Positions 1,590 through 64,000 of a stretch of 64,000 nt of DNA are shown one piece after another. The position numbers and the translations under genes are program-made. Every line of letters begins with the position of its first letter. The first letter of the stretch is position 1. Under the pieces are notes generated by a model that worked only from the letters and a program-made list of their open reading frames with translations, did no database searches and was not told the origin of the DNA. The stretch is taken from contig CAYLHQ010000012.1 in NCBI GenBank assembly GCA_964383585.1, forward strand, positions 36,714 through 100,713, written 5' to 3'. Origin of the DNA: an uncultured Acidobacteriota bacterium (GTDB lineage: Bacteria > Acidobacteriota > Polarisedimenticolia > Polarisedimenticolales > DASRJG01).

Positions 1590-1775
1590 ATGGATCCGGA
1601 GGCGCCCCTCGAGCCCGACCCCGTCATCGAGGCCTACAAGGCGCACGTGGACCGGACCCTCCTCCGCGAGAACCTGAAGCGCAGCGTCGCCGAGCGGCTC
1701 GCGAACTTCCTGGAGCTGCAGCGCCTCGCGGAAGAGGCCAGGCGCGCGGGCGAGAGGGCGCGGGGCGGGCGGTGA
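1590..1775 (+). CDS. small helical protein, putative antitoxin-like partner of the downstream nucleotidyltransferase
   Basis: ATG at 1590 is preceded by GGGAGGG. The 61-aa product is charged and helical (...VIEAYKAHVDRTLLRENLKRSVAERLANFLELQRLAEEARRAG). Its stop TGA 1773-1775 overlaps GTG 1772 of the next ORF (GTGA coupling). Confidence 0.5.
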   Translation: MDPEAPLEPDPVIEAYKAHVDRTLLRENLKRSVAERLANFLELQRLAEEARRAGERARGGR

Positions 1776-1930: not shown

Positions 1931-1942
1931 GAGGCCCTCACG
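1931..1942. repeat. left copy of the 12-bp direct repeat (putative target-site duplication) GAGGCCCTCACG
   Basis: Identical 12-mer at 1931-1942 and 2142-2153. Both copies are in frame with the respective gene halves (E-A-L-T). Confidence 0.75.
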
Positions 1943-2141
1943 ACGTGACGCGAATCGTGGGGACGGGAGGATCGAGGGACGCCACCGAAGTTGCGGTGGG
2001 ATCTGGGGATTCCCTTTCCGCGCCGATCGGAAGCCCAGGGCTCGCGACTTCGCGGCACGGGCTTCGCGATGGAACTCTCGGACCCACCGCAACTTCGGCC
2101 CCATGCACGGCGCGAGTCCTCCCCACCGTTCGCACCACCTT
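1943..2141 (+). mobile_element. MITE-like non-autonomous element, copy A (199 bp, no ORF)
   Basis: Flanked by the 12-bp direct repeat. The ends form imperfect inverted repeats: left ACGTGACGCGAATCGTGGGGACGGGAGGA versus the reverse complement of the right end, AAGGTGGTGCGAACGGTGGGGAGGA. There is a perfect 16-bp internal stem (1985-2000 pairs with 2083-2098). The element is homologous to 51897-52096. Confidence 0.6.
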
Positions 2142-2153
2142 GAGGCCCTCACG
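2142..2153. repeat. right copy of the 12-bp direct repeat GAGGCCCTCACG
   Basis: See the entry for 1931-1942. Confidence 0.75.
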
Positions 2154-2525
2154 CCCTTCGCGCCCTATCTGCGCGGCGCGCCCGCCGGGCTTCCGTTCGA
2201 ATGGTCCGTTTCGACGGTGCTTCGTGGACTCAACTTCACCCTGACGACTAGGCTCGGCGACATCGACCTTCTCGGCGAGCTTACCGGCGGGGGAACGTAC
2301 GAGGACCTCGAAGGATCGACGCTCGGCGTCGAGCTCTTCGGGTGTCGGTGCCGTTGCCTCGATCTCGACACGCTCATCCGGGTCAAGCGAGCGGGGGGCA
2401 GGCCGCGTGATCTGGAAGCCGTCGCGGAGTTGGAGGCGCTGGCGGAGGAGAGAAGGCGCCTCGGCGGGACCTGACCCCGACAGGGACCTGTCGCATATCC
2501 CACACCCGCCGTCCGAGACGGAACA

Positions 2526-8409: not shown

Positions 8410-8439
8410 AGTATTGGAACAAAAAGCGGAATGTCCCCT
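8341..8439. repeat. AT-rich imperfect palindrome, AGGGGACATTCCG(C/G)TTTTT family; likely hairpin/terminator
   Basis: The left arm AGGGGACATTCCGGTTTTTCTTTCCATTCTTCAAG (8341-8375) pairs with the reverse complement of 8405-8439, AGGGGACATTCCGCTTTTTGTTCCAATACTTCAAG. The first 22 nt of the reverse complement of the right arm (AGGGGACATTCCGCTTTTTGTT) are identical to the outer arms of the 46778-46952 palindrome; the left arm has two substitutions in that stretch. Confidence 0.7.
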
Positions 8440-8450
8440 ATCTTGTCCCC

Positions 8451-13633: not shown

Positions 13634-13663
13634 TCCGCCGACGATGGAGGAGGAGCCGACCCG

Positions 13664-15937
13664 ATGACGACACGGACCGAAACGTTCACCTACGACGACG
13701 CCATCGTCCGGAAGTTTCTGCTCGCCACCCTGGTCTGGGGGGCGGTGGGGATGCTGGTGGGCGTCCTGGTCGCCATCCAGCTCGCCTTCCCGGCGGCGAA
13801 CCTGGGTCTCCCTTGGACTTCCTTCGGACGTCTGAGGCCGCTCCACACGAACGCGGTGATCTTCGCGTTCGCCGGAAACGCGATGTTCACCGGCATGTAC
13901 TACTCGACCCAGCGCCTGCTCAAGACCCGGATGTTCTCGGACCTCCTGAGCTCGCTCCACTTCTGGGGCTGGCAGGCGATCATCGTCGCCGCCGCCGTGA
14001 CGCTTCCCTTGGGTTTCACGACCTCGAAGGAGTACGCCGAGCTCGAGTGGCCGATCGACGTCGCGATCGCCCTCGTCTGGGTGATCTTCGCCGTCAACTT
14101 CTTCGGAACCCTGGCCCGGCGCCGGGAGCGCCACATTTACGTCGCCATCTGGTTCTACATCGCCACCATCCTCACGATCGCGCTCCTCCACATCTTCAAC
14201 AGCCTCGAGGTCCCGGCGAGCCTCTGGAAGAGCTATTCGGTCTACGCGGGGGTCCAGGACGCGTTCATGCAGTGGTGGTACGGCCACAACGCGGTCGCGT
14301 TTTTCCTGACCACCCCCTTCCTCGGCCTCATGTACTACTTCATGCCGAAGGCCGCCGACCGCCCCGTCTTCTCCTACAAACTCTCGATCCTCCACTTCTG
14401 GTCGCTGATCTTCATCTACATCTGGGCGGGCCCCCACCACCTCCACTACACCGCCCTCCCCTCGTGGGCCGCGACGCTCGGGATGCTCTTCTCGCTGATG
14501 CTTTGGATGCCCTCGTGGGGCGGCATGGTGAACGGCCTGCTGACCCTCCGGGGCGCCTGGCACAAGGTCGCCGACGACGCGATCCTGAAGTTCTTCGTCG
14601 TGGCGATCACGTTCTACGGGATGTCGACCTTCGAGGGGCCGCTCCTTTCGATCAAGAGCGTCAACTCGCTCTCGCACTACACCGACTGGACGATCGCCCA
14701 CGTGCACGGCGGCGCGCTCGGCTGGGTCGGGTTCATGACCTTCGGCATGGCGTATTGGCTCATGCCGCGTCTCTTCCAGACGAAACTCTGGAGCAACCGT
14801 CTCATGGAGATCCACTTCTGGACCTCCACGGTCGGGATTCTCCTCTACGTGCTCCCGATCTACGCGGCCGGGCTGACGCAGGGGCTCATGTGGCGCGCGT
14901 TCGACGAGACGGGTCGCCTGGCCTACGGCGACTTCATCGAGACGACGATGCGCCTCATCCCGATGTACTGGTTCCGCGTGCTCGGTGGGGTCTTCTACCT
15001 CTCCGGCACGGTCCTGTGCATCGTGAACCTCGCGAAAACCTGGGGTTCCCGGCCTTCGCGGTACGAAGTGCCGGTCCACGAGGCCCCCGCCCTCTCCCCC
15101 GAGTACACGGACCCGTCGCCGGTTGCGTCCTACCTGCGGCGCGTCAAGGCCCCGGTCGCCGGTCTCGCCTACACGATCGAGCGGTTCGTCGACGCGACCT
15201 GGCACCGCCGCTGGGAGCGCCTCCCCCTCGTCTTCAGCGCGTGGGTAGCCGTCGCGGTCGTCGTGGCCTCGCTCTTCGAGATCATCCCGACCTTCCTGAT
15301 CCGGTCGAACGTGCCGACGATCGCCTCCGTGAAGCCGTACACCCCGCTCGAGGTCGTCGGGCGCGACCTCTACATCGCCGAGGGGTGCAACAACTGCCAC
15401 TCGCAGATGGTTCGGCCGATCCGCGCCGAAACGGTCCGCTACGGCGAGTACGGGAAGCCCGGGGAGTTCGTGTACGAGCACCCGTTCCTGTGGGGATCGC
15501 GCCGCATCGGACCCGACCTCCAGCGGGTCGGCGGGAAGTACCCGAACCTCTGGCACGTCCGCCACATGGAGAATCCGCGCTCGACCACGCCGCAGTCGAT
15601 CATGCCGCCGTATCCGTGGATGCTCACCGAGCGGATCGATTTCGAGGGGATCCCCGTGAAGCTGCGTGCGATGCGCACCGTCGGGGTTCCCTACACCGAG
15701 GCCGACGTCGCAGGAGCCGCGGCGTCGGCCCGCGAACAGGCGCGCGCGATCGCGGAGGACGTCGCCGCCCAGGGCGGCGCTCCGGGGCTCGAGGACAAGA
15801 AGATCGTCGCCTTGGTCGCCTACCTCCAGCGGCTCGGCCAAGACATCAAGGCCGTTCCACCCCCCGGCGCGCCGGCCGAAGCCGCACCCGCGATCGCCTC
15901 CGCCGGGAGCGGCGGGGGCTCCGGAGGGGACAGGTGA
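13664..15937 (+). CDS. ccoNO: cbb3-type cytochrome c oxidase, fused subunits I and II (CcoN-CcoO)
   Basis: A single 757-aa ORF. The CcoN part has 12+ TM helices and His ligands (HFWSLIFIYIWAGPHHLHY, HVHGGALGW). A ~50-aa linker follows, then CcoO with a TM anchor and heme motif CNNCHSQMVRP. Confidence 0.92.
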   Translation: MTTRTETFTYDDAIVRKFLLATLVWGAVGMLVGVLVAIQLAFPAANLGLPWTSFGRLRPLHTNAVIFAFAGNAMFTGMYYSTQRLLKTRMFSDLLSSLHFWGWQAIIVAAAVTLPLGFTTSKEYAELEWPIDVAIALVWVIFAVNFFGTLARRRERHIYVAIWFYIATILTIALLHIFNSLEVPASLWKSYSVYAGVQDAFMQWWYGHNAVAFFLTTPFLGLMYYFMPKAADRPVFSYKLSILHFWSLIFIYIWAGPHHLHYTALPSWAATLGMLFSLMLWMPSWGGMVNGLLTLRGAWHKVADDAILKFFVVAITFYGMSTFEGPLLSIKSVNSLSHYTDWTIAHVHGGALGWVGFMTFGMAYWLMPRLFQTKLWSNRLMEIHFWTSTVGILLYVLPIYAAGLTQGLMWRAFDETGRLAYGDFIETTMRLIPMYWFRVLGGVFYLSGTVLCIVNLAKTWGSRPSRYEVPVHEAPALSPEYTDPSPVASYLRRVKAPVAGLAYTIERFVDATWHRRWERLPLVFSAWVAVAVVVASLFEIIPTFLIRSNVPTIASVKPYTPLEVVGRDLYIAEGCNNCHSQMVRPIRAETVRYGEYGKPGEFVYEHPFLWGSRRIGPDLQRVGGKYPNLWHVRHMENPRSTTPQSIMPPYPWMLTERIDFEGIPVKLRAMRTVGVPYTEADVAGAAASAREQARAIAEDVAAQGGAPGLEDKKIVALVAYLQRLGQDIKAVPPPGAPAEAAPAIASAGSGGGSGGDR

Positions 15938-32895: not shown

Positions 32896-33198
32896 ATGAA
32901 GATAGCACCGGGGGTTTCCGCGCGGAAACCGAGTTCGGGCAACCTGCGAGCGTCGAATTTTCGGAAGCACGACGTCACGTTCGAGGAGGCGATGAGTGCC
33001 TTCGGAGACCCACTGTCCGTCACCGTTGAAGACCCCGATCACGGGGACGGAGAGCCTCGTTTTCTCCTTCTGGGACTATCTTACGCAGGACGTCTGCTGG
33101 TGGTCTCTCATACGGAGCGCGGCGAATCGGTTCGCATCATCAACGCGCGGCAGGCCAGTCGCAGAGAGAGGACGATCTATGAAGAAGCGGAGGAATGA
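32896..33198 (+). CDS. BrnT-like (DUF497) ribonuclease toxin
   Basis: ...NFRKHDVTFEEAMSAFGDPLSVTVEDPDHGDGEPRFLLLGLSYAGRLLVVSHTERGESVRIINARQASRRERTIYEE follows the BrnT pattern (KHG-V-x-F-x-EA ... E-x-R ... RIISAR-x-A). The N-terminus is atypical. Confidence 0.7.
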   Translation: MKIAPGVSARKPSSGNLRASNFRKHDVTFEEAMSAFGDPLSVTVEDPDHGDGEPRFLLLGLSYAGRLLVVSHTERGESVRIINARQASRRERTIYEEAEE

Positions 33199-33424
33199 GG
33201 TTCGAGAACCAGACATGCGGGCCGAGTACGACTTCCGCGGCGGAGTCCGCGGGAAGTACGCAGCTCGCTTCGCCGCCGGGACCAACATCGTCGTGCTCGA
33301 CCCGGACGTCGCAGCCCGCTTCCCCGATTCACGAACCGTCAACGAAGCGCTGCGCGCGCTGGTCGCTGTCGCCGATCGCAGGGTGAGTCGGCGGTCGAAA
33401 CCACGCGCGAGTTCAAAGCGGTGA
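33179..33424 (+). CDS. putative antitoxin (BrnA-position protein, 81 aa)
   Basis: It overlaps the BrnT-like gene by 20 nt. The motif MRAEYDFRGGVRGKYAARF...VVLDPDVAARFPDSRTVNEALRAL is common in small antitoxin-like proteins paired with BrnT-type toxins (recalled from memory). Confidence 0.55.
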   Translation: MKKRRNEVREPDMRAEYDFRGGVRGKYAARFAAGTNIVVLDPDVAARFPDSRTVNEALRALVAVADRRVSRRSKPRASSKR

Positions 33425-33936
33425 TCCCACCGGCCCCCGCGATCGAGCGCCTCTCGCAACCCGTGAATGCCGACGACCTCCGTGCGCGCGCCGCACTCCT
33501 CCTCGACGCCGTCGCGTCCGGCGCGGCGGAGAGCTTTCTCGCCACGCTCACGCTCGAGCAGGCCGAAGACTGGTGGCGGAAGACACTTCGAGAAGCCCAC
33601 TCCTCCGCGATCGTCTTCGCCGCCCGCGATGCGGGCTCGATCGTCGGAACCGTGCAGATGCACCCCGCCTGGGCGCCGAACCAACCGCACCGCGCGGAGA
33701 TCGCGAAGCTCCTGGTACACCGGAGCCGGCGGGGCGAAGGCCTCGGGACCCGCCTCATGCACGCGATCGAGGGCGAAGCGGCGCGCGCCGGGTTCCGGCT
33801 TCTCACGCTCGACGCGAAGCGCGGCGCGGAGGCGGAGCGCCTCTACCGCAAACTCGGGTGGATCCACGCGGGGACGATCCCCGACTTCGCCCTCGATCCC
33901 GACGGGGTCACCCCGCACGACGCGGTGGTGTTCTAG
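33421..33936 (+). CDS. GNAT-family N-acetyltransferase
   Basis: GTG 33421 overlaps the upstream stop (GTGA). The acetyl-CoA-binding motif is LLVHRSRRGEGLGTRLMHAIEGEAARAGFRLLTLD. The product is 171 aa. Confidence 0.85.
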   Translation: MIPPAPAIERLSQPVNADDLRARAALLLDAVASGAAESFLATLTLEQAEDWWRKTLREAHSSAIVFAARDAGSIVGTVQMHPAWAPNQPHRAEIAKLLVHRSRRGEGLGTRLMHAIEGEAARAGFRLLTLDAKRGAEAERLYRKLGWIHAGTIPDFALDPDGVTPHDAVVF

Positions 33937-34003
33937 AAGCGACTCCCGTCCGCCCCTCTCGGCGGGTGAGGTGTACGATGTCGGCGCTTCCGGAGGAGTC
34001 CGA

Positions 34004-34393
34004 GTGAATCGATGGCCGGACTGGTGGGCGCAGGCCGAGCGGGATCTGGCACACGCTCGCCATGCCCTCGAGGACGCCGACCATGAGTGGGCGTGCTTCG
34101 CGGCGCAACAGGGGGCGGAGAAGGCCCTCAAGTCGCTCGTCCTCGCCCTCGGGGGCGAGCCCTGGGGTCATTCGGTCCTCGCGCTCGTGGAGGCCCTACC
34201 CGAGTCCGTCGGGCGGACCGAAGCGACGACGGACGCCGCGAGCCGACTCGACAAGCACTACATCCCGACCCGCTATCCGAACGGTTTCGACGCGGGCTTC
34301 CCCGGGAAGCTCTACACCCGCGGCGAGGCCGTCGCGGCGATCGAGGACGGGGAGCACATCCTTGCGTTCTGCAGGCGCCATCTACCTCGATAG
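34004..34393 (+). CDS. HEPN domain protein
   Basis: GTG 34004 follows GGAGGAG. The sequence WWAQAERDLAHARHALEDADHEWACFAAQQGAEKALKSL...LDKHYIPTRYPNGF is typical of HEPN proteins from HEPN/MNT pairs. Confidence 0.75.
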   Translation: MNRWPDWWAQAERDLAHARHALEDADHEWACFAAQQGAEKALKSLVLALGGEPWGHSVLALVEALPESVGRTEATTDAASRLDKHYIPTRYPNGFDAGFPGKLYTRGEAVAAIEDGEHILAFCRRHLPR

Positions 34394-34712
34394 GCCACGC
34401 CGGATCGAGGAACTGCGCGACGCGGCCCGCCGTCTCGCGACACGCCGCCCGGAAGTCCAGCGCGTGATCCTCTACGGCTCCCTCGCCCGCGGTACGGCGA
34501 CGCCCCGCTCCGACGCCGATCTTCTCGTGGTGGTCCGGGAGAGCGTCCATGGGAGCCTCCGCGACCGGATCCCGGAGATCTTGCTCGCCCTGTCTCCGCT
34601 TCCCTGTCCGGTCGATCTGCACGTTCTCACCGTCGCGGAATTCGACCAAGGCGTCGAGGAGCGAAACCCCCTCGTCCGGGAAGCGCGAGAGGGGGGAATC
34701 GCGCTGATCTAA
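34362..34712 (+). CDS. MNT-type nucleotidyltransferase domain protein
   Basis: ILYGSLARGTATPRSDADLLVVV is the GSxxRG...DxD minimal NTase motif. The only in-frame start I can find is TTG 34362 (GGGGAG lies upstream), which overlaps the HEPN gene by 32 nt. Confidence 0.7.
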   Translation: MRSAGAIYLDRPRRIEELRDAARRLATRRPEVQRVILYGSLARGTATPRSDADLLVVVRESVHGSLRDRIPEILLALSPLPCPVDLHVLTVAEFDQGVEERNPLVREAREGGIALI

Positions 34713-34746
34713 AAAAAACGGCACGCGGAAGAGACGTCGCGTGCCG
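34711..34746 (-). terminator. intrinsic terminator for the LysR-family gene (possibly bidirectional)
   Basis: CGGCACGCG (34719-34727) pairs with CGCGTGCCG (34737-34745). On the minus strand the hairpin is followed by T8 (the A8 run at 34711-18 on the plus strand). Confidence 0.65.
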
Positions 34747-34847
34747 TTCCCAATTGGGGAGGTCGCGACGTTTGTACACGGGTTTCTCCCCGCCCGTCCA
34801 ATGTCGCAAAACCATATCGCTGTATCGACCCCGCATCGCCGGTACGA

Positions 34848-35741
34848 CTAGAGTTTTTGGAGGAATCTCCTCGCCGGCTCGGGGAGGGGCGCGTCCGATC
34901 GCACCGCGCTCACGTAGGAGATCCTCGGAGCCTCCGCGAGCTCTCGACGTTCGACCCGCGGCCCCGGCGCACGCCGAGAAAAGGCGATCGCGGGAACCGC
35001 CGCGACCCCCGCCCCCGCGGCCACGAAGCGTCGCACGAGGGAGAGGTTTCCCACCTCGACCGCGGGATCGAAGCGAAGCCCTCGCTCCTCGAAGAGCCTT
35101 TCGAGACGCCGACGGAATCCCGACCCGGACTGGAGGGCCACGATCCGTTCCCGGGCCAGGTCTCCGATCGAAACCTTCCTGCGCCTCGGCGCCGCGCCGA
35201 CGGGGTAGAACAGCTCGATCCTCGTTTCGAGAAGGGGCGCGAACGAGAGCCCGTCGGTCCGCACGCCCGCCTCCGGAGCGACGAGGAGCGCGACGTCGAT
35301 CTCGCCTCCCCGGAGGGCGTCGAGGAGCCGCGGCCCCGGACCCTCCAGGAAGCGCATCGACAGCGCGGGGGTCTCCCGAAGGAGCCTCGCGAGAGTCTTC
35401 GGGAGAACCTCGCGACCGAGCGCGTCCCCCGCCCCCACGCGGAGCGCCGCCGGCCCCCCGAGGGGAAGCCCCGCCGCGGCGTCGAGCGCCTCGACCGCGG
35501 CGATCGCCGCTTCCGCGAGCGGGAGGAGCCGCGCCCCTTCCGGGGTGAGGGTCATGCCGCGGGCCCGCCGGACGAAGAGGCGAACCCCCCAGGCCGACTC
35601 GAGCTTCGCGAGGCGCGCGCTCACGCTGGGCTGGGTACGCGCCAGCGCTTCGGCCGCGCGGCCCACGCTCCCACGTCGCGCAACCGCCGCGAACGCGCGG
35701 AGCGCGGGGAGGTCGGAGGCAGGATCGGACATTGGATTCAT
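34848..35741 (-). CDS. LysR-family transcriptional regulator
   Basis: N-terminal wHTH (LRAFAAVARRGSVGRAAEALARTQPSVSARLAKLE) plus a LysR substrate-binding domain. It is divergent from purL across a 64-bp AT-rich spacer. Confidence 0.85.
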   Translation of the reverse strand: MNPMSDPASDLPALRAFAAVARRGSVGRAAEALARTQPSVSARLAKLESAWGVRLFVRRARGMTLTPEGARLLPLAEAAIAAVEALDAAAGLPLGGPAALRVGAGDALGREVLPKTLARLLRETPALSMRFLEGPGPRLLDALRGGEIDVALLVAPEAGVRTDGLSFAPLLETRIELFYPVGAAPRRRKVSIGDLARERIVALQSGSGFRRRLERLFEERGLRFDPAVEVGNLSLVRRFVAAGAGVAAVPAIAFSRRAPGPRVERRELAEAPRISYVSAVRSDAPLPEPARRFLQKL

Positions 35742-40440: not shown

Positions 40441-40526
40441 AAAAGGGGACTGGCACCTTTTCCGGTCGCCGGAAAAGGTGCCAGTCCCCTTTTTCACACC
40501 GGAAAAAGTGCCAGTCCCCTTTTTCA
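40441..40526. repeat. AT-rich perfect palindrome (GGGGACTGGCACCTTTTCC family) plus a tandem extra half-copy; likely bidirectional terminator
   Basis: AAAAGGGGACTGGCACCTTTTCCGG (40441-40465) pairs with CCGGAAAAGGTGCCAGTCCCCTTTT (40469-40493). A second right-arm copy, CCGGAAAAAGTGCCAGTCCCCTTTTT, lies at 40499-40524. The element lies in the ~100-bp gap between the convergent stops of fpr (40439) and the TonB-dependent receptor (40539). Confidence 0.75.
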
Positions 40527-42687: not shown

Positions 42688-43161
42688 TCAGGAAGGTGGG
42701 GCGCGGGGAGATCGGTGGAGGGCGAGCGGGACGCCACCCGGCCGAAACAGAACCGTCGGAGTTGCAATCGAGAGTGGGCGTTCCGGAGGCGTGGCCCCCG
42801 TGTCCTCGAAGCCGGATTCTCCCGGGGGCGCCGCGCCCGGAAGGAAGCGTGCGGACTTGCGGGGGTCGTCCCGGTCTGCGGGGGGCGACCAGGGATCGGG
42901 CCTCCCCTCGTCGAAGCCGCCGCGATCGGCGTGAGTGTGACCGGCGCCTCCGTGCTCATGGAACCCGAGATGGAGGTGGTCGTGGACGACGTGCGCGGAG
43001 CCGTTCCGGTGATGGTGGGGACGATCTTCACCCGTTGCACCCAGCCAGAAGAGACAAACGAACCCGAGCAAACCCGAGACGCTCCGCTCGGGGAAAAAAT
43101 GGGGACTGGCACCTTTTCCGAAGACCCTCCCGGAAAAGGTGCCAGTCCCCATTTCTCTCAT
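42688..43161 (-). CDS. hypothetical His-rich protein (start uncertain)
   Basis: The ORF has high GC3 by eye. It encodes a hydrophobic segment (LLGFVCLFWLGATG) followed by HHHRNGSAHVVHDHLHLGFHEHGGAGHTH. ATG 43161 overlaps the upstream stop (ATGA) but would put the 43099-43152 palindrome inside the coding region. The next in-frame start is TTG 43071. Confidence 0.35.
   Translation of the reverse strand: MREMGTGTFSGRVFGKGASPHFFPERSVSGLLGFVCLFWLGATGEDRPHHHRNGSAHVVHDHLHLGFHEHGGAGHTHADRGGFDEGRPDPWSPPADRDDPRKSARFLPGAAPPGESGFEDTGATPPERPLSIATPTVLFRPGGVPLALHRSPRAPPS
43099..43152. repeat. perfect palindrome of the GGGGACTGGCACCTTTTCC family
   Basis: ATGGGGACTGGCACCTTTTCCG (43099-43120) pairs perfectly with CGGAAAAGGTGCCAGTCCCCAT (43131-43152). 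It starts 6 nt downstream of the sulfatase-like gene stop. Confidence 0.75.
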
Positions 43162-45275: not shown

Positions 45276-45336
45276 GGAACGCGACAAGATACCGCGTTTC
45301 CGAAGCGGCGGACGGGCGGGATAAGATCTTCCGCAC

Positions 45337-46779
45337 ATGGAAATCTTGGCGGTCCTTCTCCTCGTCGTCTCGGCGATCATCCTGTTCGCCACCGAAGCGC
45401 TGCGCGTGGACGTGGTGGCGATCCTCATCCTGGTGGCCCTCGCCCTCTCCGGTCTCATCGCTCCCGAGGAGGCGCTTTCCGGGTTCTCCAATCCCGCGAC
45501 GGCAACCGTCGCCGCGATGTTCGTCCTCTCCGCCGGACTCCGTCACACCGGGCTCGTGGACGCCTTCGCGGACGGGGTCGATGCGCTGCTCGGCCGGAGC
45601 GCGATTCTCGTGACGCTCGGTCTCATGATCGCCGTCGGTCTCGTCTCCGCGTTCATCAACAACACGGCTGCAGTCGCGGTCCTGATCCCGATCGTGATCG
45701 GACTTTGCAGGCGCCATGCCTGGTCCCCGTCCCGCTTCCTGATGCCCCTCTCGTTCATGGGGCAGATCGGCGGCGTGTGCACCCTCGTCGGGACCTCGAC
45801 GAACATCCTCGTCTCGGACATCGCGCGGCGGTCCGGGATGGAACCGTTCGGGATGTTCGAGTTCTCCGCGCTCGGCCTTTGCTTCGCCGGCGTTGGCTTC
45901 GTGTACCTCGCCCTGGTGCCGTCGTTGCTGCTCCGGAGGAACGGCGACGCCCCTCCGCAGCCGCTCGCGGCCCGCTACGAGCTGGGCCAGTACCTCACCG
46001 AGATCGAAGTGGGACCGGATTCCGAGCTCGTCGGACAGCGGCTCGCCGACACACAGATCGGTGAACGCCTCGGCCTCGAGGTCCTCGAAGTGATCCGGGG
46101 AGGGAGACCGGTCTGGATTCCCGCTCCGGAACAGGGTCTCGAGGCAGGCGACGTGCTCGTCGCGCGTGCTCCGATCTCGAACCTTCTCGACGCCCAGCAG
46201 GCGATGGGGCTCCGCTTCAAGCGGAACATCGAGATGAGCGAGTCGCGACTGCAGGGTTCGGGAGTCGTCCTCGTCGAGGCGCTGGTCGCGCCGGATTCTC
46301 GACTTGTCGGGAAGACGCTCCAGGAGGCCCAGTTCCGGAGGAGGTACCGCTGCCAGGCAATCGCGATCCGCCACCACGACCGGCTCGAGGCCGGAACGAT
46401 CGGGAAGGTCCGGCTCGCGGTCGGCGACGTCCTGCTGCTTCAGGGGTACCGCCGGGACATCGAGGCGCTCGCCGCCGGTCTCGCAGTGTTGACTCTCGAG
46501 GAGATCGCGGCGCCCGAGGTCCCATGGCTCAACAAGGGGCTCGCCGTCGGCGCAATCTCGGGAGCCGTCGCGTTCGCGACGCTCGGCGTGGCGCCGATCC
46601 TCGTGACCGCCATGGCAGCCGCCGCGTTCCTCGTCATCGCGCGCGTGCTGACGATCGAGCAGGCCTACCAGGCGATCGATTGGAAGGTGATCTTCCTCCT
46701 CGCCGGGGTGATCCCTCTCGGGATCGCGCTCGAGAGCAACGGGGCGGCCGGGCTCCTCTCTCGGGGGGTGATGTTTTAG
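45337..46779 (+). CDS. SLC13/DASS-family permease with two TrkA-C domains, apparently C-terminally truncated
   Basis: The N-terminal transport half is ~205 aa, followed by two TrkA-C-like domains (...GQRLADTQIGERLGLEVLEVIRGG..., ...GKTLQEAQFRRRYRCQAIAIRHHD...). Only ~90 aa of the second transport half remain before TAG 46777-79, which sits on the first bases of the 175-bp palindrome. Confidence 0.75.
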   Translation: MEILAVLLLVVSAIILFATEALRVDVVAILILVALALSGLIAPEEALSGFSNPATATVAAMFVLSAGLRHTGLVDAFADGVDALLGRSAILVTLGLMIAVGLVSAFINNTAAVAVLIPIVIGLCRRHAWSPSRFLMPLSFMGQIGGVCTLVGTSTNILVSDIARRSGMEPFGMFEFSALGLCFAGVGFVYLALVPSLLLRRNGDAPPQPLAARYELGQYLTEIEVGPDSELVGQRLADTQIGERLGLEVLEVIRGGRPVWIPAPEQGLEAGDVLVARAPISNLLDAQQAMGLRFKRNIEMSESRLQGSGVVLVEALVAPDSRLVGKTLQEAQFRRRYRCQAIAIRHHDRLEAGTIGKVRLAVGDVLLLQGYRRDIEALAAGLAVLTLEEIAAPEVPWLNKGLAVGAISGAVAFATLGVAPILVTAMAAAAFLVIARVLTIEQAYQAIDWKVIFLLAGVIPLGIALESNGAAGLLSRGVMF

Positions 46780-46952
46780 GGGACATTCCGCTTTTTGTTT
46801 CAGAAACGATAGGGGGGGAAGGGAAAAAGGGGACAGGCACCTTTTCGGGAGAACCTTGCGAAATGAACGCAGCGGCCCTCCCCGAAAAGGTGCCTGTCCC
46901 CTTTTTCCCTTCCCCCCCTATCGTTTCTGAAACAAAAAGCGGAATGTCCCCT
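46778..46952. repeat. ~175-bp composite near-perfect palindrome (both repeat families nested); bidirectional terminator-like
   Basis: The left arm 46778-46850 (AGGGGACATTCCGCTTTTTGTTTCAGAAACGATAGGGGGGGAAGGGAAAAAGGGGACAGGCACCTTTTCGGGAG) is the reverse complement of 46879-46952 apart from one position near the loop. It spans exactly from the permease stop to the ilvE stop. Confidence 0.8.
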
Positions 46953-47832
46953 AAACGGCGACGTACTCGACCTTGACGCCGTCCCGCACGCGCAGGCGGC
47001 GGAAGTCGTCGAGGAGTCGCTTCGTCACGGGCCCGGGCACTCCCGCTCCCACACGGCGTCCGTCCACCGCGATCACGGGGACGATCTCAGCGCCGGTGCC
47101 GGTCATGAAGACCTCCTCGGCGTTGTAGAGATCATGCAACCCCACCACGGTCTCGGCGGTCTTGAAGCCGGCGTCGCGCGCGAGCTCGAGCACCGCGCCT
47201 CGCGTGATCCCCGAAAGCGCCCCCTGCATGGTGTCGGGGGTCTTGACCCAGCCGTCGCTCACGAAGAAGAGGTTGTCGGCGGTGCACTCCGCCACGTACC
47301 CCTGATGGTTGAGCATGATCGCCTCGAGCGCTCCCGACCGCTTGGCGTCGAGCTTGCCGAGGATGTTGTTCAGGTAGTTCAGGGACTTGATCCGCGGGTC
47401 GATCGAGTCGTTCGGGATCCGTCGCACGCTCGCCGTCACGAGCGCGATCCCCTTCTCGTAGAACTCCTTCGGGTAAAGCGCGATCTCGGCGACGATGATC
47501 ACGATGGTCGGCCGCTTGCACTTCGCCGGGTCGATCCCGAGATCCCCGTCTCCACGCGAGACCACGAGCCGGATGTACGCATCCCTCTTCTCGTTGGCGG
47601 CGACGGTGTCGCAGACGGCAGCCGTCATCTCCTCGGGGCTCAGGGGGATCTCGAGCGCGATCGTCTTCGCCGACCGGTACAGACGGTCGATGTGTTCCTT
47701 CAGCCGGAAGACGTTCCCGTCGTAGACCCGGATTCCTTCGAACACGCCGTCCCCGTACAGGAACCCGTGGTCGAACACGGAGACCTTGGCGTCCTCCCTC
47801 GCGTACAGCTTGCCGTCGACGTAGATCTTCAC
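46951..47832 (-). CDS. ilvE: branched-chain amino acid aminotransferase (class IV)
   Basis: (V)KIYVDGKLYAREDAKVSVFDHGFLYGDGVFEGIRVY...IKSLNYLNNILGK... are IlvE signatures. GTG 47832 follows GAGGAGG. Confidence 0.9.
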   Translation of the reverse strand: MKIYVDGKLYAREDAKVSVFDHGFLYGDGVFEGIRVYDGNVFRLKEHIDRLYRSAKTIALEIPLSPEEMTAAVCDTVAANEKRDAYIRLVVSRGDGDLGIDPAKCKRPTIVIIVAEIALYPKEFYEKGIALVTASVRRIPNDSIDPRIKSLNYLNNILGKLDAKRSGALEAIMLNHQGYVAECTADNLFFVSDGWVKTPDTMQGALSGITRGAVLELARDAGFKTAETVVGLHDLYNAEEVFMTGTGAEIVPVIAVDGRRVGAGVPGPVTKRLLDDFRRLRVRDGVKVEYVAV

Positions 47833-47842
47833 GGGGACCTCC

Positions 47843-48445
47843 TCAGCAGGCGACGCGCGCGGCCGGACCGGCGGCGTCGCGGATCCGTCGAACGAATCGG
47901 CGGTGGAACACCGAATCGCCCGTCAACTCCGGATGAAACGTGAGCGCCATCACGCGCCCCTCCTCGACGGCCACGGGCTCGTCGCCGAGCCGGGCCAAGA
48001 CCTTCACGCCCGGTCCGATCGACCGGAAGCGCGGCGCTCGGATGAACACCGCCTCGACGGGTCCACCGACCTCGGGCGCGTCGAGCACGGTCTCGAACGA
48101 TTCGACCTGCCGGCCGAACCCGTTCCGCTCAATGACGGCGTCGAGAAGGCCGAGGCTCGGCTGGGCCGGATGGTGGACCTCGCGGGAGAGCAGGATCGCC
48201 CCCGCACAGGTGCCGAGGAGAAATCCTCCCGAGGCGTGGAACTCCGCGAGCCCCTCGAACCAAGGCTCATCCGCCATGAGGTTGAGGAGGGTCGTGCTCT
48301 CTCCCCCCGGGATCACGAGGCCGTCGAGGGAATCGAGTGCGAAGACCCTCCGCACCTCGACCGCCTCGGCCCCCGCCCTCTCGAGCGCCTTCCGGTGAGC
48401 GTTGAAGTCGCCCTGGAGCGCGAGCACTCCGATCCGCCCGGACAT
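47843..48445 (-). CDS. pdxT: pyridoxal 5'-phosphate synthase glutaminase subunit
   Basis: MSGRIGVLALQGDFNAHRKAL...GLVIPGGESTT...GTCAG...FHPE. It begins 2 nt after the pdxS stop. Confidence 0.9.
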   Translation of the reverse strand: MSGRIGVLALQGDFNAHRKALERAGAEAVEVRRVFALDSLDGLVIPGGESTTLLNLMADEPWFEGLAEFHASGGFLLGTCAGAILLSREVHHPAQPSLGLLDAVIERNGFGRQVESFETVLDAPEVGGPVEAVFIRAPRFRSIGPGVKVLARLGDEPVAVEEGRVMALTFHPELTGDSVFHRRFVRRIRDAAGPAARVAC

Positions 48446-51896: not shown

Positions 51897-52096
51897 AAGG
51901 TGGCGCGAAGGGGGGGGGAGGACTCGCGCCGCGTACGAGGCCGAAGTTGCGGCGGGACCTAGGGTTCTCCGCTCCGCGCCGAAGGGAGCGTTCCCCTCGT
52001 GACTCCGCGTCACGGGCGTTCCGATGGAACTCCAAGACTCGCGGCAGCTTCCGCTCCCCATGCGGGTGCAGCGATCCCCACGATCCGGACCACGTT
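51897..52096 (+). mobile_element. MITE-like element, copy B (diverged, intergenic)
   Basis: It aligns in the same orientation over essentially its whole length with 1943-2141. Shared strings include CCGAAGTTGCGG, TCCGCGCCGA, CACGGGC, GATGGAACTC and CCCCATGC. Its left end AAGGTGGCGCGAAGGGGGGGGGAGGACTCGCG matches the terminal repeat of copy A. I estimate identity at about 70% by eye. Confidence 0.5.
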
Positions 52097-52198
52097 GCGG
52101 CGGCCGGACGGAAGGGAAACGCCGCCTCGACCTCGCCCTCCGGGCCGACCCCGCTCTCGGGGAGGCCGGGGCGGCTGCGCGAGCGCACCGGCCGCGGC

Positions 52199-62097: not shown

Positions 62098-62792
62098 GCG
62101 TCTTCCTCGTCACCGGGGCGGCGCGCGGGCTCGGCCTCGAGATGGTCCGGCAACTTCTCGAGTCGGGGCACAGGGTCGTTGCCTGCCCCCGTCGCGCCGA
62201 GTCGTGCGGCCTCGACGCCCTTTCGGTCGCCCACGCGTCGGCGCTCTGGATCGTCCCCATGGACGTGACCGACGGGCCCTCGGTGCGGGAGGCGGCACGC
62301 CGGGTCTCGTCGCGCGTTCCCCACCTCGACGTGCTGGTCAACAACGCCGGGGTTCTCCATCGCGGAGAACCTTCGGTCGAGGCGCTCGATTTCTCGGGTC
62401 TCGAAGATGCCTACCGCGTGAACGCCCTCGGGGCGCTCCGCGTCACGGCGGGGTTCCTCCCCCTCCTCCGGAAGGGAGCGGGCAAGAGGATCGTCAACGT
62501 CTCGTCGCTCATGGGCTCGATCGAGGACAATGCGAGCGGCGGCGCCTACGGGTACCGGATGTCCAAGGCGGCGCTCAACATCGCGACGAAGAATCTCGCG
62601 ATCGAGTTGAAGGGCGATGGGTTCGTCGTCGTTGCGATGCACCCGGGGTGGGTCCGCACACGGATGGGAGGGGAACGGGCGCCGCTCGACATCGAGCCCG
62701 CCGTCCGGGAGCTGCTGGCGACCGCCCTCTCGGCCGGACCCGACCGGAGCGGCGGGTTCTACGGCCCGGGAGGAACGAGGTTGCGTTGGTAA
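62094..62792 (+). CDS. short-chain dehydrogenase/reductase (CsgA/C-factor-like subgroup)
   Basis: GTGA overlap with the previous SDR. Motifs are VFLVTGAARGLGLEMVRQL, NNAG and YRMSKAALN. Confidence 0.8.
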   Translation: MSVFLVTGAARGLGLEMVRQLLESGHRVVACPRRAESCGLDALSVAHASALWIVPMDVTDGPSVREAARRVSSRVPHLDVLVNNAGVLHRGEPSVEALDFSGLEDAYRVNALGALRVTAGFLPLLRKGAGKRIVNVSSLMGSIEDNASGGAYGYRMSKAALNIATKNLAIELKGDGFVVVAMHPGWVRTRMGGERAPLDIEPAVRELLATALSAGPDRSGGFYGPGGTRLRW

Positions 62793-62848
62793 GAAAAGGG
62801 GACTGGCACCTTTTCACGGCTGTGAAAAGGTGCCAGTCCCCTTTTCTT
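62791..62848. repeat. perfect 27-bp-arm palindrome of the GGGGACTGGCACCTTTTC family; bidirectional terminator-like
   Basis: AAGAAAAGGGGACTGGCACCTTTTCAC (62791-62817) pairs with GTGAAAAGGTGCCAGTCCCCTTTTCTT (62822-62848) around a 4-nt loop. It fills the entire gap between the convergent stop codons (TAA 62790-92 and TGA complement 62848-50). Confidence 0.8.
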
Positions 62849-63159
62849 CAATACCCGCCGCGGCCGTAGCCGCCGCCGCCGCCCCTGCGGCCGCCACCGC
62901 CACCGCCCTCACGCTCGCGCGCCTCGTTGACGGTCAGCGGACGGCCTCCGTAGTTCGTGCCGTTCAGCGAACGAATCGCCGCGTCGGCCTCGTCCTGACT
63001 CCCCATGTCGACGAAGCCGAACCCGCGCGGCCGGCCGGTGTCGCGGTCGGTGATCAGCTTCACCTCGCGCACCGTACGGCCGTCCTGGGCGAAGAGCGCC
63101 CGAACGTCGTCTTCGGTCGCGTTGAAGGGGAGGTTGCCGACGTAGAGTCTCGTACCCAT
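62848..63159 (-). CDS. RRM-type RNA-binding protein with a Gly/Arg-rich tail
   Basis: MGTRLYVGNLPF (RNP-2) ... RGFGFVDM (RNP-1) ... GGGGGGRRGGGGGYGRGGY. ATG 63159 was chosen because AGGAG lies 9 nt upstream. Confidence 0.85.
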   Translation of the reverse strand: MGTRLYVGNLPFNATEDDVRALFAQDGRTVREVKLITDRDTGRPRGFGFVDMGSQDEADAAIRSLNGTNYGGRPLTVNEAREREGGGGGGRRGGGGGYGRGGY

Positions 63160-63260
63160 CGAACCCATCTCCTGCCGAACGGCCGGGGCGGCCCGTTCAC
63201 CGGCTCGGAGCCTTCCGGCTCCGTCATCCTTCCGCGCCCTCACGCCCCGAGGTGGGGCCG

Positions 63261-63297
63261 AAACGAAAAACGCCGCAAGACCGTTCCTGCGGCGCGC
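63261..63297 (-). terminator. intrinsic terminator-like hairpin plus U-tract between the decarboxylase and RRM genes
   Basis: On the minus strand CGCCGCA-GGAACGGTCT-TGCGGCG is followed by TTTTTCGTTTC. Confidence 0.45.
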
Positions 63298-63349
63298 GAA
63301 ATCCGAGTTCCCCTGACACAGACATCGGTGAGGCCGCGAACCGCGCCGA

Positions 63350-63378
63350 AGTTAGACCCGGAAGCCCCTAACTGTCAA
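63350..63378 (-). promoter_or_regulatory. candidate sigma70-type promoter TTGACA-N17-CTAACT
   Basis: The minus strand reads CTTGACAGTTAGGGGCTTCCGGGTCTAACT. It overlaps the decarboxylase stop and would give a ~180-nt leader for the RRM gene. Confidence 0.3.
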
Positions 63379-64000
63379 GAGTTAGAGCCCACCGCCCCTG
63401 CGGCCTCCTTCAGGAGGTCGAAGGCGAGATCGAGGTCTTCGGGAAGGGTCCTCGGGTTCCCGATCGAGACTCGGAGCGTGAACCGGTCCCTGAGGCGGGT
63501 GTGGGAGAGGTAGATCTTCCCGCCGCGGTTCACCCGTTCGAGGATCGCCTCGTTTCGCCGGTCGAGCTCGGCCTCCACACCGGAGAACGCCCGCGGTCGG
63601 TTCCGGAAGCAGACGGTGGCCATGGGGACGGGGGCGAGGAGCTCCCAGTCGGGGTCGGCCTCGATCCGGAGGGCGAAGCGCCGGGCGAGGCGGACGTGCT
63701 CGCGAATACGCGCCCCGAGCCCCTCGGCCCCGAACCACCGGATCAGCATCCACATCTTGAGGGCTCGGAACCGCCGGCCGAGCTGGATCCCGTACTCGTT
63801 GTAGTTCCGCACCCCCGGCGCGTCCGGGGTCCTGAGGTACTCCGGGACGAGGGAGAAGGCCTCGCGGAACCGTTCGGATCCACGGAAGAGGAGGAGCGAC
63901 GCGTCGAACGGGGTGAACATCCACTTGTGGGGGTTGACGACGATCGAGTCGGCCTCCTCCCAGCCCGCGAGGAGGGAGCGGTACTCCGGGACGAGAGCCA
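63375..64000 (-). CDS. group II PLP-dependent (aromatic-L-amino-acid/glutamate-type) decarboxylase, 3' part (5' end outside the window)
   Basis: The frame is open to the window edge. It contains the PLP-lysine motif SIVVNPHKWMFTPFDAS and the C-terminal small domain. Confidence 0.85.
   Translation of the reverse strand, partial: ALVPEYRSLLAGWEEADSIVVNPHKWMFTPFDASLLLFRGSERFREAFSLVPEYLRTPDAPGVRNYNEYGIQLGRRFRALKMWMLIRWFGAEGLGARIREHVRLARRFALRIEADPDWELLAPVPMATVCFRNRPRAFSGVEAELDRRNEAILERVNRGGKIYLSHTRLRDRFTLRVSIGNPRTLPEDLDLAFDLLKEAAGAVGSNS

Follow-up and report, generated by a model that had tools for sequence, protein, structure and literature searches.

Near the start of the 64,000-nt stretch of DNA analyzed here (the window), what appears to be a single nucleotidyltransferase gene is divided between two short reading frames by 199 bp of non-coding sequence, called c1 below, which has a copy of the same 12-bp sequence on either side. 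The question raised by this arrangement is whether the gene has been interrupted by a mobile element and, if so, how recently, by what kind of element, and by what route. The answer proposed here, which we regard as very probably correct, is that 1943-2141 is a recent MITE insertion disrupting a DUF6036 nucleotidyltransferase gene.

Insertion site and interrupted gene

The layout predicted from the letters of this locus was verified (Table 1). The 12-bp direct repeat is present at both positions, and the element between its copies contains the perfect 16-bp inverted repeat described for it, with 82 nt between the arms. Terminal inverted repeats are also present and, as expected, imperfect, but they extend over 19 nt (1945-1963 and 2120-2138, 79% complementarity) rather than the approximately 25 bp first proposed. 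The claim that the 199 bp hold no credible ORF agrees with what was found, the largest ORF entirely within c1 being just 50 aa long with no family matches; yet four of its six reading frames are open from end to end.

The 61-aa ORF upstream is coupled to the nucleotidyltransferase gene in the way originally described, by a GTGA in which the GTG start at 1772 overlaps its TGA stop. The 5′ fragment of the interrupted gene stops at a TGA two codons into c1, while the 123-aa ORF on the other side starts at an ATG inside c1 and has native gene sequence from 2154 on. Removal of 1943-2153 in silico rejoins the two halves in frame, as had been foreseen, and gives a 492-nt ORF of 163 codons (...LVEALTPFAPY...). 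The element and one copy of the repeat (199 bp + 12 bp) add 211 bp, a frame shift in this gene. The protein is cut short at 58 aa, and a remainder of 123 aa could be translated from the ATG within the element. For annotation purposes, the two ORFs (1772-1948 and 2103-2474) are best entered as a single disrupted gene.

The repaired protein matches Pfam DUF6036 above the cut-off (26.5 bits, residues 13-72). This match spans the insertion junction at residue 57/58, indicating that the uninterrupted state of the gene is ancestral. Searches of NCBIfam and PDB sequences with the nucleotidyltransferase gave no convincing match, and the 61-aa partner matched no Pfam, NCBIfam, or PADLOC family. The gene pair had been called a toxin-antitoxin-like module; comparison with AbiE-type or MNT/HEPN-type modules was negative, as the repaired protein scores 18.9 bits against Pfam AbiEii (below the cut-off of 22.5) and is marginal against PADLOC AbiEii (E = 0.009), with no recognizable AbiEi or HEPN partner. 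The toxin-antitoxin label for the 61-aa/163-aa pair is therefore unsupported, and amounts to a guess.

The flanking repeat is not by itself an argument for insertion. Exact 12-mer direct repeats 50-300 nt apart are found at nine loci in the window, vs. a mean of about seven in 30 first-order Markov simulations of it; the 12-bp repeat alone is within chance expectation and not significant. The significance of the insertion comes instead from empty sites, and from other copies of the element whose homology stops exactly at the same boundaries.

Table 1. Coordinates of features in the window, and flanking sequences (12 nt on each side) of the element copies with recognizable duplications.
Feature	Positions	Strand	Sequence	Remarks
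61-aa ORF upstream of nucleotidyltransferase gene	1591-1775	+		gene call in all 8 related contigs
5′ fragment of DUF6036 nucleotidyltransferase gene, 58 aa	1772-1948	+		58-aa call in L003, L010
Left flanking direct repeat	1931-1942	.	GAGGCCCTCACG	positions 1-10 probably true target duplication
Probable MITE copy c1, 199 bp, non-coding	1943-2141	+		missing from six sister-lineage contigs
Left terminal repeat region	1943-1972	+	RCGTGACGCGAATCGTGGGGACGGGAGGAT	nearly invariant in seven family copies
Left arm, 16-bp internal inverted repeat	1985-2000	+		other copies with uncompensated mismatches
Right arm, 16-bp internal inverted repeat	2083-2098	+		
3′ fragment of nucleotidyltransferase gene, 123-aa ORF	2103-2474	+		123-aa call in L003
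Right terminal repeat region	2109-2141	+	GGCGCGAGTCCTCCCCACCGTTCGCRCCACCTT	conserved across copies; G always next
Right flanking direct repeat	2142-2153	.	GAGGCCCTCACG	
Diverged copy c2	51897-52097	.		nhmmer E = 7e-17; intergenic
c1 flanks			left GAGGCCCTCACG, right GAGGCCCTCACG	12/12 match
L018a flanks			left GAGCGACCCGCA, right GAGCGACCCGAG	shared GAGCGACCCG, then CA / AG
L025 flanks			left GTCCAGCTCCGG, right GTCCAGGTCCCT	GTCCAG[C/G]TCC, then GG / CT
L023B flanks			left GGTGGGGCCGAG, right GGGGGGGCCGCA	GG[T/G]GGGGCCG, then AG / CA
L023A flanks			left GCGAGGACCGCG, right GCGAGGAGCACC	9/12 match

Empty sites in a sister lineage

A lookup of the exact 61-aa upstream protein in public assemblies gave 12 contigs. 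On two of them, L003 (JGI 3300043177, a 275-kb contig) and L010 (a Logan assembly), the nucleotidyltransferase gene is split into 58 and 123 aa, as in the window. On six others (L004-L009) there is a single intact 163-aa gene in the same neighborhood, the order with the empty site being radical-SAM, 61-aa, and nucleotidyltransferase genes followed by OEP/CusB/CusA-like efflux genes. In the alignment, the two alleles differ by a clean indel of 211 bp, GAGGCCCTCACG being present just once in the empty one, and only six residues separate the natural intact protein from the product of the conceptual repair. The original prediction of a recent insertion of a MITE-like element, for which uninterrupted homologs of the repaired product were proposed as a check, is thus borne out by six natural 163-aa alleles, each uninterrupted and with a single 12-mer.

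DNA flanking the empty sites is 91-96% identical to the window, which makes these contigs a sister lineage rather than the same strain. Filled and empty alleles are both represented among related natural populations in public metagenomes. The locus is a clean and dated case, from an uncultured environmental bacterium, of a gene inactivated by a MITE. Between the window and the filled contig L003, which is of the same strain, there are two differences in 11,775 bases, both inside the core of the element (within 1943-2141, L003 10354-10552). This suggests either mixing of reads between copies during assembly or real heterogeneity among copies.

A family of related copies

A second copy in the window, the diverged c2 (Table 1), sits between a membrane-protein gene (-) and a cyclophilin gene (+). 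Compared with c1, it has the arm that is conserved best on the other side of the core (82% to the c1 right arm, inverted), with an 82-nt core that is co-linear with that of c1 (73% forward vs. 57% reverse). Such a layout would be consistent with inversion of the core between the 16-bp inverted repeats, or with c2 representing a separate subfamily.

Other copies were reached by way of proteins. Protein databases searched with the concatenated six reading frames of c1 returned 4, then 12, protein clusters containing translated copies (13 distinct); all were read-through copies of the element, and no protein family was among them. The JGI-sourced proteins were traced back to DNA, while four NCBI-sourced ones, including P0001 and P0021, are known as protein only. 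At the DNA level the tally is nine full or partial copies plus one solo end, on the window and four other contigs: L018 has two full copies (L018a and L018b) and the solo end, L023 two full copies (L023A and L023B), L024 a full copy (copy 1) and a second one cut by the contig end, the two forming a tandem pair, and L025 one full and one truncated copy. Several are intergenic (c2, L018b, L023A, and the full L025 copy).

The seven full copies (c1, L018a, L018b, L023A, L023B, L024 copy 1, and that of L025) have mutual identities of 80-96%, with c1 at 84-96% to the other six, and terminal regions of about 30 nt that are nearly invariant. Their homology ends exactly at the boundaries set by the c1 repeat. 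In addition, the assembly of a Logan contig stops 28 nt inside the element, as commonly happens at repeats.

Searches of DNA collections were less productive. A scan of metagenome_contigs for CAACTTCGGCCN{6,12}GGCGCGAGTCC gave two matches, both due to chance; a scan of genome_contigs for CCGAAGTTGCGGN{60,80}GATGGAACTC gave five, in unrelated phyla and with no extended similarity; and three scans of viral_contigs gave no real copy of the element. The source lineage is evidently lacking from these collections. Look-ups of the cyclophilin and PdxS genes, aimed at the c2 site in other lineages, returned the same strain only.

The further copies with the same ends that the original prediction proposed to seek by BLASTN thus exist, both in the window (c2) and on L018 and L023-L025, and c1 belongs to a real, previously undescribed family of elements in uncultured high-GC bacteria. 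It has several of the properties by which MITEs are recognized: a length under 500 bp without coding capacity, terminal inverted repeats, a duplication backed by an empty site, and dispersed copies. One practical consequence is that gene callers translate this GC-rich family as spurious or chimeric proteins, of which there are 13 clusters in public databases.

Insertions read in frame

Some copies form part of the reading frame in which they lie. There is a 198-bp variant which, together with 12 bp of flank and tip, amounts to 210 bp, or 70 codons, free of stops. It is read through in frame in a membrane-protein gene at L018 742-1638 (copy L018a, protein P0003), and again at L023 11078-15169 (copy L023B), within a gene for a 1363-aa HAMP/HisKA histidine kinase; gene callers read each of these as a single ORF. 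Five homologues of P0003 lack exactly the 70 residues, which identifies these as an insertion. A near-identical uninterrupted allele, which would be an empty site for L018a, was sought and not found, the closest homologue being 65% identical. In P0022, the gene call restarts inside a copy of the element and runs on into membrane-protein-like sequence. In the L018 and L023 proteins, these stretches of 70 residues need to be recognized as originating from the element.

Target duplication and flanking pattern

Five copies have recognizable duplications (Table 1); in a further case, P0017, the flanking residues are compatible with a perfect repeat. Pooled over the five, flank positions 1-10 agree in 46 of 50 comparisons, and positions 11-12 in 3 of 10, which is the chance level for this composition. 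When duplication lengths of 8, 9, 11, and 12 bp were also weighed, 10 bp fitted the pooled flanks best, with 9-12 bp possible for individual copies. From this difference in agreement, the duplication typical of the family appears most likely to be 10 bp, the 12 bp seen at c1 probably being in part coincidence. The original prediction of a 12-bp target duplication therefore holds for the repeat at c1, which matches at 12 of 12 positions, but most likely not for the length of the duplication itself. Nor is its length at the long end for IS families, as had been suggested: about one helix turn (approximately 10 bp) is the norm in the IS4 family (PMC2266710), and that of the c1 family is accordingly not exceptional.

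The two bases adjoining the left end vary among copies (CG, CA, AG, GG), which is unusual for the tip of a transposon. The most economical reading is that two extra bases, usually C-R, travel with the left end, and the last CG of the left repeat of c1 may thus belong to the element. There is also a target preference in the flanks, for G at position 1 and C-R at positions 9-10: G directly follows the right end in eight of eight aligned copies, C and then R occupy positions 9-10 in nearly every right flank read, and nearly every left flank has C at both -4 and -2.

Proposed mobilization, and tandem arrays

The insertion at c1 has exact boundaries, an empty site, conserved ends, and a family of relatives. 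To account for it, c1 is proposed to be a copy of a non-autonomous transposon (a MITE) of the cut-and-paste or copy-and-paste type. A transposase from elsewhere in the genome would most likely recognize the conserved terminal repeats of about 30 bp and join the ends of the element to target cuts staggered by about one helix turn, and repair of the gaps would then duplicate approximately 10 bp of the target. At c1, the next two bases of the target (CG) would happen to equal the first two of the element, making the visible repeat 12 bp long. As to the enzyme, its DDE-type chemistry, its action in trans, and the 10-bp stagger are, like its identity, inferred.

No transposase was seen in the window when the original prediction was made, and none was found here among window ORFs that were scanned or have precomputed Pfam hits, the scan covering the window apart from 33076-34850 and 62100-64000. 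There is likewise none among the precomputed Pfam annotations listed for L018 and L023-L025, and no full-length parent element was recovered.

The only lead to a parent is the solo left end on L018 (JGI 3300043177, contig Ga0484859_0001529). At L018:328-348 it is identical to the left terminus of c1 over 21 of 21 nt, or 96% over 25 nt if the adjacent CACA is included. Approximately 125 nt inward of this end is the beginning of an ORF with a CxxC...CxxC pattern, of which 67 codons are present before it is cut by the start of the contig (1-348 region; MRVRSAPVERTPPSEFRPRFCPSPVCEDHH...RFRCKRCKTGFS). This zinc-ribbon ORF, which is reminiscent of IS1-type and IS1595-type zinc fingers, had no match in Pfam, NCBIfam, PDB, plasmids (by tblastn), a set of 5.8 billion proteins, or IMG/VR. 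It may be unrelated to the element.

Several copies do not fit simple independent insertion. On L024 (10351-10639), the right end of one copy is joined head-to-tail to the left end of the next across the spacer GAGGGTTCCACG, which matches the outer left flank TCGGCTATCGCG at just 6 of 12 positions. Protein P0001 has three tandem units with spacers of 4 aa (12 nt; RGDD, RARR, and RARR), and P0021 likewise has three, of an element that is related but longer. Arrays of this head-to-tail kind, in which the 12-nt spacers are unlike the outer flank (L024 and P0001), are not predicted by simple independent insertions. The length of the spacer equals that of the duplication plus the two tip bases, which suggests intermediates that are circular or have abutted ends, or else recombination between copies.

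It is possible, if on balance rather improbable, that the same family moves through such an intermediate, by the copy-out/paste-in route (as in IS3, IS30, IS256, ISL3, and IS1 circles). The ends would then be joined across about 12 nt of donor flank, a few donor bases would be carried along, and a circle could also recombine with a resident copy. The L024 junction and the P0001 and P0021 triples would be expected on such a scheme; the bases next to the left end follow, in every copy, the C-R of target positions 9-10, as if carried over, and no duplication can be recognized at two of the young copies (L018b and L024 copy 1). However, clean duplications, with 9-10 of 10 bp matching, flank c1, L018a, L025, and L023B, and their origin in the target is shown by the empty site; no circle junction was directly observed. 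Recombination between copies could also yield tandem arrays, and the L024 junction, being short-read assembly at a contig end, is weak evidence.

An extended form of the circular scheme, which we consider doubtful, would bring these observations together. Here the enzyme would be an unclassified transposase with an N-terminal zinc ribbon, represented by the truncated L018 ORF and defining a new IS group; the intermediate would be circular or have abutted ends, with about 12 nt kept between these, and in-frame insertions of 70 residues would arise repeatedly from the 198-bp variant. If correct, this would explain the arrays, the donor-like C-R at the left tip, and the copies without duplications. 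Discovery of the parent element could establish a further IS group, one that has a zinc-ribbon transposase and makes 10-bp duplications.

Alternatives to a recent disruptive insertion

Direct insertion of a MITE into an intact gene, the reading preferred here, can also be set against two further explanations. In one of these, there was no recent insertion: the element is ancestral in the gene and was lost from the sister lineage by precise deletion between the 12-bp repeats. Recombination at short direct repeats can indeed delete the intervening DNA precisely, and this locus was compared in two lineages only. Nevertheless, such a history is very improbable. The DUF6036 model is uninterrupted across the junction; the interrupted gene, with its premature stop, is otherwise little changed from the intact allele; the flanking repeat is still perfect; and other copies are found at unrelated sites, each with a duplication of its own.

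The second explanation concerns the folding potential of the element, for which Rfam and RNA folding had been proposed as checks. Rfam has no match at gathering thresholds over the window, and none up to E = 10 for 1700-2400; a search around the element for sites resembling promoters or terminators was negative. No compensating changes accompany the stem mismatches of L018a and L018b, which are young copies, and what few stem changes there are on both sides come from the diverged copy c2. That the element might be a structured RNA or a self-splicing intervening sequence which leaves the gene functional is scarcely credible, since its strong predicted fold (-117.9 kcal/mol, z = -5.2) is equaled by that of the opposite strand (z = -5.3), as expected for inverted repeats at the DNA level, while the covariation term of the consensus fold is unfavorable (+0.96, five copies compared), Rfam is silent even at E = 10, introns do not duplicate their target, and the same element also occurs in intergenic positions. 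The structured-RNA reading was rejected on the grounds of like folding of the two strands, lack of covariation support, and lack of an Rfam match; the hairpin potential is just a consequence of inverted repeats nested within the DNA.

Other features of the window and related contigs

A near-perfect palindrome of approximately 179 bp is located at 46776-46954, between the convergent genes 45325-46779 (+) and 46951-47922 (-). It is AT-richer than its surroundings and unrelated in sequence to c1, with arms of about 75 bp that are 91% self-complementary; it could represent a further MITE-like element, or else a terminator that acts in both directions. Hairpin motifs in common with it (e.g., AAAAGGGGACAGGCACCTTTTC) are found elsewhere in the window (40441-40495, 43091-43154, and 8415-8440) and in L025 (10904-10930, 12489-12517, 13137-13162, and 16213-16238). 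These match the inner or the outer part of the palindrome, and several lie just past the ends of genes; one in L025 comes directly after the truncated copy of the 199-bp element. The recurring hairpins look like a REP-like or terminator-like repeat family.

The window also contains, at 13634-15934, a 767-codon ORF that matches both Pfam COX1 (CcoN-like) and FixO (CcoO), and so corresponds to a fused cbb3-oxidase subunit gene. FixP-like and FixG-like genes follow it.

Comparison with known systems

Prokaryotic MITEs, such as Correia elements, ERIC, Nezha, and MITEAba12 (PMC10969869), are the most general point of comparison. They share with the c1 family a non-coding length below 500 bp, terminal inverted repeats, a target duplication that is present in young copies and decays with age, strong hairpin potential, multiple dispersed copies, and polymorphism of insertion between related strains. 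While MITEs are typically AT-rich, the c1 family is GC-rich (approximately 68%) and found in GC-rich DNA. It further differs from MITEs in general in its duplication of about 10 bp and in its head-to-tail arrays with a fixed 12-nt spacer.

The IS4 family, with the MIC231 cassettes mobilized by IS231, is similar in several respects: a duplication of approximately 10 bp (PMC2266710), a target sequence preference (here G1...C9-R10), and non-autonomous elements bounded by IS-like ends. The ends of the c1 family differ, however, from the 5′-CAT of IS231 and ISH8. A DDE/YREK transposase did not come to light for the c1 family, and the only candidate ORF, that of L018, begins with a zinc ribbon, which is not a known IS4 feature.

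Some resemblance to IS1 can also be seen. The right end of the c1 family includes GGTGGTG, which fits the IS1 end motif GGnnnTG, and IS1 forms circles with a short spacer. The motif VRNG...QRFxCxxCKT in the candidate ORF is reminiscent of the InsA zinc finger. Searches for such a finger were nonetheless negative: Pfam Zn_Tnp_IS1 was unmatched, as were other Pfam and NCBIfam models, and BLASTP against InsA of IS1A gave an insignificant E = 0.097 over 9 residues (the InsA DNA used matched real IS1A at 100%). The IS1 duplication is 8-9 bp, vs. 10 bp here, and in the c1 family two extra bases lie outside the GG.

Rickettsia palindromic elements (RPEs), along with other MITEs known to enter genes in frame (PMC10969869), are the parallel for in-frame insertion into genes, here by the 198-bp variant with its 70 stop-free codons. 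They have no sequence similarity to the c1 family, whose host is a high-GC environmental bacterium, and unlike RPEs the 199-bp c1 does not preserve the reading frame and is disruptive to its host gene. Taken together, the kind of element (a MITE) is well known and the event an ordinary one, in a family that is previously undescribed; with its tandem arrays, its recurrent in-frame insertions of 70 residues, and a transposase that is possibly novel, this family may stand slightly above the routine.
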